From: Infirmifilum sp.
GTDB taxonomy: Archaea > Thermoproteota > Thermoprotei > Thermofilales > Thermofilaceae
Direction of reading: 5' to 3'
Length of the DNA: 64,000 nucleotides
NCBI GenBank assembly: GCA_041287245.1
Contig: JBEULP010000062.1
Coordinates: forward strand, 1 to 64,000
A model generated the notes under the pieces. The model was not told the DNA's origin. It did no database searches and saw only the letters and a list, made by a program, of their open reading frames with translations. Shown piece by piece: positions 17,169 to 27,816 of this stretch; position 1 is the stretch's first letter, and each line of letters opens with the position of its first letter. The translations under genes were made by a program, and so were the position numbers.

Positions 17169-20003
17169 GTGTCTGTGGCTGCTGAACAGCCTGTTACCGC
17201 GCTTCGGGGCGTGTTGCATGAGAGGCTTGTGGACCTGCTTGAGAGGGAGGGGTATCGTAGCCTAAACTATATTCAGCTCGAGGCTTTGAGGCGCAAGAAC
17301 TCTCAACACCTGTTAATAATAGCTCCTACGGGCTCTGGGAAGACGGAGGCAGCTGTCCTCCCCATTCTTGACAGCCTCCTCCGGGAGGGGGGGAAACCAA
17401 TATATGCTCTCTACGTCACGCCTCTCAGGGCTCTTAACAGGGACATAAACCTTAGGCTCCGTAGGTTTTTCACCTCTCTGGGCTTCGCGGCTGAGATAAG
17501 GCACGGTGATACGCCCCAGGCACAGCGTAGGAGAATAGCTGAAAACCCACCCCACTTTTTGATAACCACGCCTGAGACTCTCCAGTTCATACTCGTAGAC
17601 AAACGGTATAGGGAGAGCCTCGGTAATCTCCGCTGGCTCGTCGTCGACGAGCTTCACGAGCTGATAGACGATAAGAGGGGGGTTCAGCTAAGCCTCGCCC
17701 TGGAGCGGCTCCGCTTACTCTCAAGGGGGCTTCGAGTCATAGCCCTGTCTGCTACGCTGCGCGACCCCCTGGAGGCCCTCGGATTTATAAGCGGCGGCAG
17801 GGGAGGAACTGTTATCGAGTGGTCTCAGAGGAAAAACTACAAAATCATGCTTGCCGACCTTCCAGAAGCACGTGAGGGTGAGCCAGGTGGCCTCGCCCCC
17901 GAGCTCTATGAGAGGATAAAGCTTCTCGTTGATGAGGTCTCGAAAGGAGGTGTGATAATCTTCACTAATACACGTGACACTGCAGAGCTTGTAGGGCGTA
18001 TATTGTCCCACGAGTTTAATCTGGACGTCAGGGTTCACCACGGGAGCCTTTCACGGGAGGAGCGAGAGGAGGCTGAGTCGCTCTTCAAGGAGGGTAAGGT
18101 TAAAGCCATCGTAGCAACTTCTAGCCTGGAGCTGGGGATAGACATCGGCTATGCGAGGCTCGTAGTACAGTTCGGTTCTCCGCGGCAGGCTATAAAGCTC
18201 GTACAGCGCATAGGCCGCTCCAGGCACAGGCTCAGCGAGACCTCCGAGGGGATACTAGTTCCCCTTGGGTTAGAGGACGCCTTAGAGTCAGTGGTTCTCG
18301 GGAGGAGGGCTGTTAACGGGGACCTTGAACAACTCGACTTGTACACAGCCCCCCTCGACGTCCTTGCCCACCAGGTCGCGGGGCTCCTTATGGAGTACCG
18401 CGAGCTCCCCTTGGAGACGCTTTACAGTGTGGTTACTAGGGCACAACCCTACCACAACCTGACCTACGGGGCTCTCTTGGACCTCCTACGCTTCATGGAC
18501 TCCATAGGGACTGCCCGACTCCTAGGGGACAAGGTCAGGGTGGGCAGGCGTACCATCAGCTACTATTACAACGCTGCCTCCATGATACCTGACAACCCCT
18601 CCTTCGAAGTGGAGGACATGGCTTCGAGGAGGAAGATAGGGCACCTAGACTACTCCTTCGCCTCCATCATAGATAGGGGCAAGGTGATCATCCTGGGGGG
18701 CAGGGCCTGGACAATAGAGGAGATAGACATAGAGAGGAACAAGGTCTACGTGACTGAATTCACAAGGGAGCTTGGAGAGCCCCCCGTATGGACAGGCCAG
18801 ACGCTCCCAGTCGAGTACCGCGTGGCCCGGGAGGTCGGCGCTTTTTACAGGAGGCTCGACAGCCTCTTAAAGAAGGGTAGGGAGCACGAGCTCTTCTCGC
18901 TTTACGCTCTACCCCGTGTAGCCTCCCTCCGGCTAAAGGAACTCGTTGAGAAGCAGCGGGCTTTCGGCTTCATGCCCTCAGAAGCGGATCTCGTGGTTGA
19001 GGTTGCCAGGAAGAACGGGAAGACCCTCGCGGTCTACCACACATTCCTAGGGACGAAGGGTAACAACCTGCTGGCACTACTCCTAGCCTTCTCGATAAGG
19101 GGGTTCTACGGCGTAACTGTAAGGTACTACTCGGATCCCTACCGGATATTCCTCTACGCAGACAGCGAGCTCCAGCCTGATAAGCTTCGCGATGCAATCT
19201 TGAAGGGCGTCCCATGGGCCCTCGAGAGGCTTGATGAGGCGGTACGTGACAGTAACGCTTACATGCTCGAGCTTCTCCAGGTTGCGGTACGCCTTGGCGT
19301 GCTGGAGAAGGGTAAGGGTAGAGTCGAGTCGGGCTACCTTTCAACGCTAAAGAGGAAGCTTAGAGGCACTCCGGTAGACCGAGAAGCAATAAGCTCCTGT
19401 CTTGTTGAGCACTTCAACCTAAGGGCTGTTGAAAGCCTGCTTGAGTCCCTAGCCTCTGGCCGGAAGAAGATCCATTTATACACGGTTCCCGATCTAAGCC
19501 CAATCGCGCAGCTGATCTTCGAGAAGCCCTTTGTGAGAACCGGGGTGTTGTCCTCTGGCCTCCCAGTCTCAGCAGTCTTCAACGCGGTGCTAAACCGCCT
19601 CGAGAACAGCAGGGTCTTACTCTACTGTATCCACTGCGACGAATGGTACGCCGAGCTTCGCGTACGCGAGGCGAAGGACATACGTGCATGCCCCAGGTGT
19701 GGCTCGAAGGCTCTAGCCGTGCTCAGACCCTACGAGGCGGACAGCTTGAAGGTGATAAAGAAATGGAAAAAGGGTGTTAAGCTGTCCCCAGAGGAGGCGA
19801 GGTTCGTGGAGAAGGCGAGACAGACAGCCTCCCTTTACATGTCATATGGGTATCCCGCGATTCTGGCGCTCGCAGGCCATGGTATAGGACCCTCAACCGC
19901 CAAGAGCCTCCTATCGAAGAGCAGGGATACGGAGACGCTTGTGAAGAACATCCTACTAGCTGAGGCAAACTACACGAGGACTAGAAAATACTGGGAGGAA
20001 TGA
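17169..20003 (+). CDS. lhr: Lhr-family SF2 helicase
   Basis: APTGSGKT, TTPETL, DELH, HHGSLS, SSLELGIDIG, QRIGRS, C-terminal CxxC..CxxC. Confidence 0.9.
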   Translation: MSVAAEQPVTALRGVLHERLVDLLEREGYRSLNYIQLEALRRKNSQHLLIIAPTGSGKTEAAVLPILDSLLREGGKPIYALYVTPLRALNRDINLRLRRFFTSLGFAAEIRHGDTPQAQRRRIAENPPHFLITTPETLQFILVDKRYRESLGNLRWLVVDELHELIDDKRGVQLSLALERLRLLSRGLRVIALSATLRDPLEALGFISGGRGGTVIEWSQRKNYKIMLADLPEAREGEPGGLAPELYERIKLLVDEVSKGGVIIFTNTRDTAELVGRILSHEFNLDVRVHHGSLSREEREEAESLFKEGKVKAIVATSSLELGIDIGYARLVVQFGSPRQAIKLVQRIGRSRHRLSETSEGILVPLGLEDALESVVLGRRAVNGDLEQLDLYTAPLDVLAHQVAGLLMEYRELPLETLYSVVTRAQPYHNLTYGALLDLLRFMDSIGTARLLGDKVRVGRRTISYYYNAASMIPDNPSFEVEDMASRRKIGHLDYSFASIIDRGKVIILGGRAWTIEEIDIERNKVYVTEFTRELGEPPVWTGQTLPVEYRVAREVGAFYRRLDSLLKKGREHELFSLYALPRVASLRLKELVEKQRAFGFMPSEADLVVEVARKNGKTLAVYHTFLGTKGNNLLALLLAFSIRGFYGVTVRYYSDPYRIFLYADSELQPDKLRDAILKGVPWALERLDEAVRDSNAYMLELLQVAVRLGVLEKGKGRVESGYLSTLKRKLRGTPVDREAISSCLVEHFNLRAVESLLESLASGRKKIHLYTVPDLSPIAQLIFEKPFVRTGVLSSGLPVSAVFNAVLNRLENSRVLLYCIHCDEWYAELRVREAKDIRACPRCGSKALAVLRPYEADSLKVIKKWKKGVKLSPEEARFVEKARQTASLYMSYGYPAILALAGHGIGPSTAKSLLSKSRDTETLVKNILLAEANYTRTRKYWEE

Positions 20004-21161: not shown

Positions 21162-21644
21162 TTATATTAACCCCTCGAGAGCCTGAAGAGCCTCCTCCAT
21201 CCAGTTCTCAATCTCGACAACCCTCCCGCACCCAGAAAGCTTTACACGGGGCCTGACGCCCCAGTTCATTTCGACCAGCAGCCCGTACAGCGCCGCCTGA
21301 ACGACCTCGAACCTCCGGAACCCTCCATAACTTTTCAGCTCAACAACCTCCCGGGGGAGACCCTCGACGAACAATACCTGGTCTGCCACCCCGTAGAGCC
21401 AGCCGAACCGAAACCTCCAGGCGAGTGGTAGAGGTGTTGATGCTATCTTCTCGCTCAGTACGAGGCTTAAGTCCCCCCAGAAACGCTCGTGCAGGTAGCG
21501 CCCCTCCGCGGCGCCTCTGCCCCTGCCTCTCCGGTACCTTCCAGCTACCTGGGTTACCGTATATTTCCTCTCATGGGAAGCTAACGCGCGCTCGAAGCGT
21601 TGTAGGGATTGGGATAGGAGCGAGTTGACTATGCTACTTCGCAT
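21162..21644 (-). CDS. PD-(D/E)XK nuclease, RecB/Cas4-like, without Fe-S cysteines
   Basis: GRYLH, GVAD, VELK, QAALY motifs I-IV; start assumed at ATG 21644, overlapping the radA-like stop. Confidence 0.72.
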   Translation of the reverse strand: MRSSIVNSLLSQSLQRFERALASHERKYTVTQVAGRYRRGRGRGAAEGRYLHERFWGDLSLVLSEKIASTPLPLAWRFRFGWLYGVADQVLFVEGLPREVVELKSYGGFRRFEVVQAALYGLLVEMNWGVRPRVKLSGCGRVVEIENWMEEALQALEGLI

Positions 21645-22590
21645 CGTGTAGACCGTCATCCTCTATTCTGAACTCCGCACTAACCCCCTTGGCGAGCCGG
21701 GGGCTGTCGAGAACCTCTACGAGGAAGCTATCCCCGGTCTTCTTCATTAGGAAGCGGTGTGTACTCGCGTGCGCTATGATGTTCCCACCCGCGGGCAGCT
21801 TAACCGCGACACCCCACGCGCTGGGAACGCTAACAACCTGGTTCGTGATGACAGCTACAAGGCTGTAGAGCCTGGAGAGCCTCTTAATCCAGTCGAGCAT
21901 ATAGTTGATCCGCTGCTGCCTCATCGCTAGCCTCTCCCGCCCGCGGAACTGAGCCCTGTAGAGAGCTATAACCGAATCTATGACTACAAGCCTCGCATCA
22001 TTCTTCAGGTACTTCGACAATTCCCTCACCACAAATTCTTCAAGCTCGTCGACGCTGAGCGGCCGTACAACATATATGTTCGCCAGGGGGTCTTCAACTC
22101 CAAACCTCTTAGCTATAGCCTCAACCCTCTCAGGGCTAAACGTCCCCTCAGTGTCCACGTAGACTGCAGAGCCCCCCAGCCCGCCGTGCGATGGGGACAG
22201 CTGAACCGTGACTGCCAGCTGGTGGCAGAGCTGTGTCTTACCACTCCCAAACTCACCGGCAAACTCGTAGATATCGTAGGCAGTCAACCCGCCCCCGAGG
22301 AGGGAGTCTATGGAGCTAACCCCGGTTGTAAGCGAATCGCGCTGCCTAAGCATCGAGGCATACTCCTTCCCGCTTATAGCCTTAGCCTCCCAGCCTATAA
22401 TCCTCCTAGCAGTCCTTACAATCCTGAAGGCTCTCTCGAAGTCGATTCCAGCCATCTCCTCCAGCTCCTCAGGATTGAAGAGCACGAGGTCTTCCAGTGT
22501 TTCAATGCCCGCTGCCTTCAGCCTGGCCACCGTAACCTTGCCGATCCCCTCCTCATGCAAGAGCTCGTCAACGCTGTGCACCGGCATCAC
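21634..22590 (-). CDS. RadA/Rad51-like recombinase, divergent paralog with N-terminal HhH domain
   Basis: GIGKVT HhH, GEFGSGKTQ Walker A, DTEGTF, VIDS Walker B, TNQV, GGNIIAHAST. Confidence 0.88.
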   Translation of the reverse strand: MMPVHSVDELLHEEGIGKVTVARLKAAGIETLEDLVLFNPEELEEMAGIDFERAFRIVRTARRIIGWEAKAISGKEYASMLRQRDSLTTGVSSIDSLLGGGLTAYDIYEFAGEFGSGKTQLCHQLAVTVQLSPSHGGLGGSAVYVDTEGTFSPERVEAIAKRFGVEDPLANIYVVRPLSVDELEEFVVRELSKYLKNDARLVVIDSVIALYRAQFRGRERLAMRQQRINYMLDWIKRLSRLYSLVAVITNQVVSVPSAWGVAVKLPAGGNIIAHASTHRFLMKKTGDSFLVEVLDSPRLAKGVSAEFRIEDDGLHDAK

Positions 22591-23128
22591 CGCAGAAAAC
22601 CTCGTCGTCTACAAGACACTTCCCATCCGCTGTGCAGACAATCCTCCTCGTAAACCTACCTATCTCTTCGAGCCACCTATCCCCGGAAACAACTACAGGC
22701 ACCTTGTAAGTAGCTGCTATACGCCTAAGGATGTCCAGCGCGTAGACAATACCACTGTTCGCGTCCCTTGTAAAACGTTGGTCTAGGTCTTCGACGATCA
22801 CGGGCTTTCTCTCCACGTCGAGCTTCCGGGGAAGATCGAACAAAAGATACTCGAGGAACTCCCCGTCGAGGACTGCTGGGACATAAAAACTCCTCGGGAT
22901 TTCAAGGTCTATCCCGCTTACGAGGATAACCCCGTGGGGTAAAATAACCCTGCTGGAGCAGACCTCGACCTGAGTTGTAAGGGGTTGAAACAGTACCGTG
23001 GTTTCTAGGCTGATCCTCGAAGCCTCATCTGCTAGCTCTCCAAATATCGCTCGGAGCTCCTCATCCCTGAAAACCTTAAGATGGGCTCTCGAGAAGCCCT
23101 CCCTTCCTATAACTATCAACGAGCTCAT
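22568..23128 (-). CDS. Hypothetical protein, possibly a degenerate (Walker A-less) RecA-fold protein
   Basis: PVIVEDLD (Walker B-like) followed by LRRIAATYKVPVVVS, like the RecA-family helix-strand; overlaps both neighbours. Confidence 0.5.
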   Translation of the reverse strand: MSSLIVIGREGFSRAHLKVFRDEELRAIFGELADEASRISLETTVLFQPLTTQVEVCSSRVILPHGVILVSGIDLEIPRSFYVPAVLDGEFLEYLLFDLPRKLDVERKPVIVEDLDQRFTRDANSGIVYALDILRRIAATYKVPVVVSGDRWLEEIGRFTRRIVCTADGKCLVDDEVFCGDAGAQR

Positions 23129-23496
23129 AGGCCCAGCCTCTCCCTCCCCCTCCTGGCTATCACTTGTAGCCAGGGGTTGTCTGCTATAAATGAGGGTGTG
23201 CCCGCGTCCTCTACCGGAGGGCTCTCATGAGTTGTCTCCTCACTCTCCTCCTCCCTGGGTACTACGATGCCGACTAGCTCTCTGAGCTCCCGAAGCCTAC
23301 GGTACAGGTTAATTCCTTTCTCCGAGAGAGAGACGAGGTGTATTCTTCCTTTTTTCCTCGTTCTAATCAAGGAGTATTTTTCTAAAAGCTCTACCGCCTC
23401 CTTTGCCTTTTTCACGTTCTTAGATAATTCCACAAGGGTTTTTTCTCCCTCTCCAATCTTCCAGACCCAGAAGATTATACGTTCAAACTCGTCCAC
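23125..23496 (-). CDS. Winged-helix DNA-binding protein with acidic linker and PSFxxDNPW tail
   Basis: LEKYSLIRTRKKGRIHLVSLSEKG wing signature; first gene of the operon. Confidence 0.7.
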   Translation of the reverse strand: MDEFERIIFWVWKIGEGEKTLVELSKNVKKAKEAVELLEKYSLIRTRKKGRIHLVSLSEKGINLYRRLRELRELVGIVVPREEESEETTHESPPVEDAGTPSFIADNPWLQVIARRGRERLGL

Positions 23497-23519
23497 AAGG
23501 ATTATTGGATTGTTTATGT

Positions 23520-23553
23520 ATAAATATGTTATTATTGAGTATAATCTTGTTAT
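23520..23553. promoter_or_regulatory. Two 13-bp palindromic boxes, 21 bp apart, over the wHTH operon promoter
   Basis: ATAAATATGTTAT (23520-23532) and ATAATCTTGTTAT (23541-23553); the first overlaps the minus-strand TATA-like TTTATACA about 25 nt before the start. Confidence 0.6.
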
Positions 23554-27667: not shown

Positions 27668-27677
27668 CACTTCTAGT

Positions 27678-27774
27678 ATAACATTGTTATACTTTATATT
27701 AACAATGTTATATTTTTCAAAAATAATGTTTTGCTACAACATACTAAGGTTATATTCAAATATAACATAGTTAT
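27678..27774. repeat. Array of five 13-bp palindromic boxes (consensus ATAACAnTGTTAT) at exact 21-bp period
   Basis: ATAACATTGTTAT 27678, TTAACAATGTTAT 27699, AAAATAATGTTTT 27720, ATACTAAGGTTAT 27741, ATAACATAGTTAT 27762. Confidence 0.8.
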
Positions 27775-27816
27775 TACAAAAATCTTCGTTAGTATGGTTT
27801 TTATAGCCGGAAGTAG

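Follow-up and report, generated by a model that had tools for sequence, protein, structure and literature searches.

A compact four-gene cassette built around a second, divergent RadA was identified in the thermoproteotal archaeon Infirmifilum sp. (assembly GCA_041287245.1, here G000; 99.99% complete, 5.05% contamination), at positions 21162–23496 of a 64,000-nucleotide stretch of contig JBEULP010000062.1 (hereafter the window). Its four minus-strand open reading frames (ORFs), which overlap head to tail by 4, about 20 and 11 bases at the coordinates given in an initial annotation made from the DNA sequence, encode a winged helix-turn-helix (wHTH) protein, a shrunken protein with a predicted RadA/Rad51 fold (orf186), a full-length RadA paralog (RadA2) and a putative nuclease. 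Each part comes from a known superfamily, and the best reading of the whole system is that of an undescribed archaeal Rad51-paralog mediator module, possibly tethered to actin. The closest named homologs of the cassette proteins belong to Infirmifilum and Thermofilum. Literature searches found no description of the operon, although its genes could be listed in arCOG tables or in supplementary surveys of RadA paralogs; in the available portion of one report, a second clade of RadA is confined to Asgard archaea and Thermofilum is not mentioned (PMC12722695), and RADAB is described as a different, euryarchaeal group (PMC3637515). The loss of a polymerisation residue from RadA2, the arcadin-2-type tail of the wHTH protein and the SWIM-domain partner encoded in related loci are features beyond those claimed in the initial annotation.

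RadA2 (21634–22590, minus strand; 318 amino acids [aa]) carries a helix-hairpin-helix (HhH) domain (PF14520, above cut-off) and intact ATPase motifs, and the L1 and L2 strings, Walker A/B motifs and HhH domain listed for it in the initial annotation are all present. A canonical full-length RadA, 41.6% identical to RadA2, is encoded elsewhere in the same genome (G000:C25:30520-31602); it passes the TIGR02236 profile (445 against a cut-off of 361.15), whereas RadA2 fails it (263.5). RadA2 passes the looser RadA profile PRK04301 (282 against 259), so that it could be taken for a true RadA in annotation and phylogenies, and fails the RadB/KaiC-like profile TIGR02237 (111 against 172). In a sample of 301 genomes of the phylum, RadA profile scores fall into two groups, at or above 413 bits and at or below 347 bits, and RadA2 lies in a separate clade of 48 paralog rows with Shimodaira–Hasegawa-like support (SH-aLRT) of 93. 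Forcing RadA2 together with the canonical RadA of its genus was rejected by the approximately unbiased (AU) test (p-AU 3e-8; 30 rows, with one requested row, L163, absent); both trees are quick trees. RadA2 is a paralog of canonical RadA with its own clade, as the initial annotation had proposed, and the edge of that clade is fuzzy: some SWIM-linked copies from distant families approach the canonical profile in score and branch near canonical RadA. The gene was found across the order and in 21 of 23 sampled genomes of the family, and was not found in G008 (79% complete) or G011 (90% complete); RadA2-type genes are present in named records from, among others, Thermofilaceae, Vulcanisaeta and Pyrobaculum. 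Only some 2–7 kb separate the cassette from canonical radA in relatives (L063–L068, L184), where rps25-like genes and genes for the helicase Lhr accompany them; here Lhr (17169–20003 of the window) remains near the cassette and radA is on contig C25.

RadA2 has lost a residue of RadA self-assembly. The phenylalanine of the FxxA motif is required for filament growth. It is present in all 12 canonical RadA sequences compared and in none of the 48 paralogs (a count that excludes four divergent rows, L002, L061:3823, L062 and L109), where its position is taken by eight different residues, none of them aromatic. In RadA2 itself, A71-I-S-G74 replaces the motif and L2 is altered, while K118 of Walker A, the catalytic Glu E148 and D205 of Walker B are intact; the Walker A Lys, catalytic Glu, Walker B Asp, L1 Arg, L2 His and ATP-cap Asp are kept in 48/48 paralogs, an aromatic residue in L2 in 41/48, and Ala or Gly at the fourth FxxA position in 46/48. 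The oligomerisation motif of RadA has been placed between its two domains (PMC11791011).

The gene directly upstream, orf186 (22568–23128, minus strand; 186 aa), encodes a P-loop-less relative of RadA2. Its predicted structure (predicted local distance difference test [pLDDT] 91.5) was compared with 48,161 chains and gave yeast Rad51 as the top match (Z 11.2, root-mean-square deviation [rmsd] 4.2, 179 residues aligned), the five best folds being those of Rad51, DMC1, XRCC3, RAD51C and RAD51D; Foldseek agrees on a Rad51-family fold (E 4e-4). The protein lacks the P-loop, the following helix with the catalytic-Glu strand, and the sensor Gln, its Walker B Asp is replaced by an invariant Glu113, and its N-terminal helical part is retained. 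The degenerate RecA fold suspected in the initial annotation is borne out by structure prediction. Because an hhalign comparison of the orf186 profile matches RadA2 (95%, E 2e-8) and not canonical RadA (1.6%), a duplication of RadA2 is the most likely origin of orf186. Its family comprises few members (15 clusters at 90% identity, 18 at 50%), and orf186 directly precedes RadA2 in all 21 loci where it was seen, these loci having been chosen by RadA2. The idea that orf186 is a split piece of a longer protein was rejected, the longest of 18 representatives being no longer than 199 aa. A RadB/Rad51C-like gene (249 aa) on contig C96 (L002:5019-6267) overlaps a 175-aa gene without a family match that resembles, by eye, a degenerate RecA fold, and may be a second paralog pair. 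No homology was detected between orf186 and either this degenerate neighbour of radB or the small protein ("mini") encoded after SWIM genes in related operons; "mini", labelled RecA-like by eye, did not align to RadA2 either.

The last gene of the cassette encodes a predicted RecB-type nuclease of the PD-(D/E)XK RecB/Cas4/Exo5 group (21162–21644, minus strand; 160 aa from the ATG at 21644, the form in the protein database), with a longer form of 165 aa available from an alternative ATG at 21659 (21162–21659). Residues H52, D88, E102, K104, Q116 and Y120 (160-aa numbering) are invariant in 58/58 aligned homologs, and the model (pLDDT 89.7) matches Cas4 (Z 11.0, rmsd 4.2, 135 residues aligned), Exo5 (Z 8.5), the nuclease part of a DinG fusion, MGME1, RecE and AdnAB. 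Cas4 carries four iron–sulphur (Fe-S) cysteines. The cassette protein has one Cys and fails the Cas4 profile TIGR00372 (15 against 65 bits), and these features, together with the invariant catalytic set, agree with its earlier description as a RecB-family nuclease distinct from CRISPR Cas4. In Pfam, NCBIfam, PHROGs and PADLOC, orf186 and the nuclease gave weak matches and no significant family; no defence system was indicated, and a sequence search of the PDB returned no match for either.

The first gene (23125–23496, minus strand; GTG start) encodes a 123-aa protein composed of an N-terminal wHTH domain, with profile matches to AF1382 (E 3e-5) and AspA (E 1.5e-4), a variable linker and a C-terminal peptide with the conserved pattern P-x-F-xxx-NPW, in which NPW is invariant. 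This tail (residues 100–118, with W109 central; codons at 23143–23199, minus strand) has the same motif as the end of the true arcadin-2 of this genome (G000:C49:104570-105289), whose gene adjoins that for crenactin (G000:C49:105311-106591; its match to the solved protein has E 4e-119). Arcadin-2 occupies the groove of crenactin with its last 17 residues, which bind through a Trp and depolymerise the filaments (PMC5173319). When residues 88–123 of the wHTH protein were co-folded with the crenactin of this genome, the pair scored 0.89 against 0.22 for the best control, with contact agreement between runs of at least 95%, a partner pLDDT of 71 and the tightest contacts at W109; the mark applied is reached by 116 of 157 solved pairs and 2 of 215 mismatched pairs. 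Binding of the tail to crenactin is therefore a prediction: since a like complex (PDB 5LY3) has been solved, such a pass shows likeness rather than binding. Arcadin-2 was not found by sequence among PDB chains of at least 20 residues.

A strict DNA pattern for the tail motif matched 74 of the 301 genomes (0 for a reversed control), and 72 of these 74 are among the 111 genomes in which crenactin was found; the pattern occurs in 2 of the 190 crenactin-negative genomes, one of them 85% complete and the other with an in-frame stop. The tail-bearing gene adjoins crenactin in 16 of 20 hit loci examined, and the pattern misses the arcadin-2 tail of one family, which has a shorter form, E-N-E-W. The crenactin-positive genomes span many families outside the class, usually with arcadin-2 alongside. 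Tail proteins with unrelated heads, of the C2H2-finger or AbrB-like type, are encoded next to RadA2 at six or more other loci. Crenactin was not found in ten genomes from families f42 and f34, and the RadA2-SWIM operons read there have no tail gene. Two further arcadin-2-type tails are encoded in G000, on a protein with an HTH and a coiled coil (G000:C64:15903-16592) and on a coiled-coil protein (G000:C26:5558-6316) in a region resembling an integrated element, which brings the candidate crenactin binders of the genome to four.

The order wHTH-orf186-radA2-nuclease is intact in nine loci (those of G000, six genus relatives and two other genomes of the family), and a seventh genus relative has orf186-radA2-nuclease up to the contig end. 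The order is the same in two other families (L044, L054) and permuted in one (L069). None of the three results that would have refuted the initial annotation was obtained: the genome has a canonical radA besides RadA2, the predicted fold of orf186 is RecA-like, and relatives share the gene order. At two loci (L073 in G012, and L188) the wHTH and orf186 genes are broken while RadA2 is intact, through decay or assembly error. Elsewhere RadA2 occurs in an operon with the order membrane protein, degenerate HerA-like ATPase with a C-terminal wHTH, small protein, RadA2 and SWIM protein, often with a further small protein and sometimes with a tail-bearing one. In the SWIM family the motif CxC..CxHxxA, which defines the SWIM motif of Shu2/SWS1 (PMC6316741), is invariant in 15/15 sequences, and of the 20 genomes outside the class in which the family occurs, 19 have a RadA-like gene immediately ahead of the SWIM gene (18 loci read, one judged from coordinates, and the remaining genome not examined). 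In G000 an extra family-B polymerase of 684 aa, possibly PolB2 and with its DTD motif intact, directly precedes the SWIM gene (G000:C38:26105-28615, L091), an order shared by G005 and not by G006. Four genomes (G007, G058, G211 and G275) have 4 to 10 matches to the SWIM family, several of them broken, which suggests that the family is also carried by a mobile repeat. A second cluster in G005 (L041, L173), RadA2-nuclease-C2H2-tail, is accompanied by SWIM and HerA/VirB4-like genes in a region resembling an integrated mobile element. An orphan degenerate HerA-like protein with a C-terminal wHTH, of the type that heads RadA2-SWIM operons, is encoded at G000:C96:3966-4820.

These features suggest that the operon specifies an accessory mediator of homologous recombination comparable to eukaryotic Rad51-paralog complexes, a mechanism given about an even chance of being correct. 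RadA2, with its ATPase residues kept and its polymerisation Phe lost, would pair with its P-loop-less copy orf186, and the pair, by offering a face that accepts Phe, would seed or cap a filament of canonical RadA at one end; trimming of the DNA end would fall to the predicted nuclease, and the wHTH protein, through its arcadin-2-type tail, would link DNA to crenactin, either tethering the DNA to the actin filament or disassembling the filament locally. The SWIM protein, encoded elsewhere in the genome, may be a further subunit. More tentatively, and at odds well short of even, a non-polymerising RadA2, its dead duplicate, the SWIM protein and the nuclease could form an archaeal Shu-like complex tethered to crenactin by a DNA-binding adaptor with a reused arcadin-2 peptide, in a system of actin-guided homologous recombination into which different DNA-binding heads were recruited independently. 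The link to the archaeal actin cytoskeleton is a bold proposal, under which crenactin may have a role in repair.

Several observations weigh against this mediator scheme. The set is not obligatory: the nuclease is absent beside RadA2 in seven family loci, and orf186 and the wHTH gene are frameshifted or eroded in G012 and G017. Five family genomes have wHTH-orf186-radA2 without the nuclease, two have these genes in eroded form and two have RadA2 alone. In G000 the SWIM gene (G000:C38:28223-28615) is unlinked to the cassette, and the HerA-wHTH gene likewise lies outside it. The high co-fold score may stem from the predictor having memorised PDB 5LY3; the co-occurrence of tail and crenactin mostly reflects arcadin-2 itself, in kin that are not independent; and crenactin-positive genomes of families f52 and f35 have RadA2-SWIM operons without a tail gene. 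Judged from the residues kept, the loss of the Phe may be compensated, the Ala/Gly at the fourth position being retained, so that RadA2 might still polymerise.

The strongest alternative, though an unlikely one, is that RadA2 is specialised as the recombinase, or the loader, of DNA received from other cells by Ced/Ted-like exchange or through integrative elements, with the membrane protein and HerA-like ATPase of the older operon passing incoming DNA to RadA2 and the nuclease processing it. In its favour are the membrane protein and degenerate HerA-like ATPase at the start of the operon in many lineages, the position of the second G005 copy among VirB4/HerA-, ParB- and Orc1-like genes (labels by eye) and the Pyrobaculum copies that adjoin HerA-like and SWIM genes, and CedB, CedD and TedB are HerA-FtsK ATPases (PMC9905601, PMC11823120). 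However, a P-loop is missing from most of the HerA-like proteins, which match no Pfam family (one of six has a weak DUF87 match), the cassette shows no pilin or channel genes, and the available portions of the ted locus descriptions mention no RadA (PMC9905601, PMC11823120). Viral contigs gave a single, distant match (27%), which also led to the rejection of a viral origin for the cassette. DNA uptake would be compatible with the mediator mechanism.

The initial annotation had favoured a self-regulated, SOS-like cassette. On such a reading, a wHTH repressor would control its own damage-response operon, and orf186, as an inactive RadA of the iRadA/ImuA type, would assist a translesion polymerase. 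The wHTH gene does head the operon, and a palindrome of the form ATAAC-N3-GTTAT with one mismatch (23541–23553, minus strand), a candidate operator, lies 57 nucleotides 5′ of its start, with a second copy 21 bp past the first (23519–23532, minus strand) that overlaps the TATA-like box TTTATA (23524–23519); this phased pair would suit repression and makes autoregulation by the wHTH protein possible. Operons of polB2-iRadA-PPB2 are damage-induced and in some bacteria accompanied by lexA (PMC11791011, PMC4104785), and the extra family-B polymerase gene adjoins the SWIM gene in both G000 and G005. Nevertheless, profile searches found no LexA-type peptidase domain in the 123-aa wHTH protein, and the cassette loci contain no polB2 or PPB2 gene (PPB2 being judged by gene content, without a profile search). 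LexA-type repressors have a self-cleaving S24 peptidase domain. Moreover, orf186 stems from RadA2 and keeps its N-terminal helical part. Among 17 cassette promoters, the palindrome stands at −56 to −58 in seven, at other offsets in two and is absent from eight; the matrix hits both copies here and the cassette promoter ranks 12 of 1710, with a matrix built from these very sites. Upstream of seven repair-related genes (canonical radA, the radB-like gene, the extra PolB, SWIM, both HerA genes and Lhr) the scores are background (ranks 587–1630 of 1710), and the best sites in the genome adjoin unrelated methyltransferase, thiamine, cas and sugar-kinase-like genes. Without a peptidase domain, a cassette polymerase or a palindrome regulon at repair genes, the SOS-like label did not survive, and an SOS-type function is improbable. 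What stood of the earlier interpretation is the paralog, its degenerate partner, the nuclease and their union in a conserved, undescribed recombination module; its SOS-like self-regulation found no support. Four palindromes of the same type, 21, 21 and 42 bp apart, lie between alanyl-tRNA editing and methyltransferase genes at 27677–27775 of the window, and in G000, G001 and G004 similar phased arrays neighbour cas genes, a CRISPR array and a tRNA.

A similarly low probability attaches to the proposal that RadA2 is a self-polymerising second recombinase of the DMC1 kind, with an interface private from that of RadA and orf186 as its terminator. Its full length, HhH domain, complete catalytic residues, L1 Arg, largely retained L2 aromatic (41/48) and PRK04301 score would all suit such an enzyme, but eight non-aromatic residues at the Phe position fit a relaxed rather than a rewired interface. 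It is very improbable that the wHTH protein is a ParR/AspA-like partition adaptor that links 21-bp-phased palindrome arrays to crenactin to position the chromosome, and merely shares a promoter with the recombination genes: AspA is among its best profile matches, ParR binds the same groove of ParM (PMC5173319) and phased arrays occur at several intergenic sites, yet the link to RadA2 recurs in the loci with unrelated tail-protein heads, nothing ties wHTH binding to the arrays, and 21-bp spacing is found in only 6 of 92 close palindrome pairs genome-wide.

What mediates recombination in archaea is poorly defined, and no cellular cargo of crenactin has been established; a DNA-binding protein with an arcadin-2 peptide would give a direct way to ask whether DNA or sites of repair are positioned by archaeal actin. 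Among known systems, the nuclease shares its fold and H-D-ExK-QxxxY set with the nuclease domains of Cas4, Exo5, MGME1, AdnAB and RecB, from which it differs as a stand-alone protein of 160 aa without Fe-S cysteines and, in the examined loci, without cas1 or cas2 neighbours. The PolB2-iRadA-PPB2 mutasome and lexA-imuABC likewise place an ATPase-dead RadA-fold protein in a conserved operon, whereas the cassette lacks polymerase, PPB2 and LexA and has an ATPase-intact paralog and a predicted nuclease. The tail resembles those of arcadin-2 (PDB 5LY3) and ParR of ParMRC in being a short C-terminal Trp helix after a variable linker, with predicted entry into the crenactin groove; unlike arcadin-2, with its core of about 200–250 aa, the protein has a wHTH head, and its gene lies outside the arcade cluster and within a recombination operon. 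RadA2 shares HhH and ATPase architecture and catalytic residues with canonical RadA and differs in lacking the FxxA Phe, scoring below the TIGR02236 cut-off and forming a separate clade; among the described archaeal RadA paralogs (RadB, aRadC/Sso2452 and Sso0777), RadB and aRadC lack the N-terminal HhH domain that RadA2 keeps. The closest likeness proposed is to the eukaryotic Rad51-paralog complexes (RAD51C-XRCC3, BCDX2, DX2-CX3), in which paralogs with the Rad51-family RecA fold are paired and one is ATPase-dead, and to the Shu complex (SWS1-SWSAP1), whose CxC..CxHxxA SWIM protein has a counterpart genetically linked to RadA2 in related lineages. The cassette differs from these in being archaeal, in its independent duplication from the RadA2 clade, in a full-length RadA2 with some 42% identity to RadA, and in its added nuclease and tail-bearing DNA-binding protein; with its Phe lost, its link to SWIM in several Thermoproteota lineages and its ATPase-dead partner, RadA2 would provide a small thermostable parallel to the Rad51-paralog and Shu complexes.

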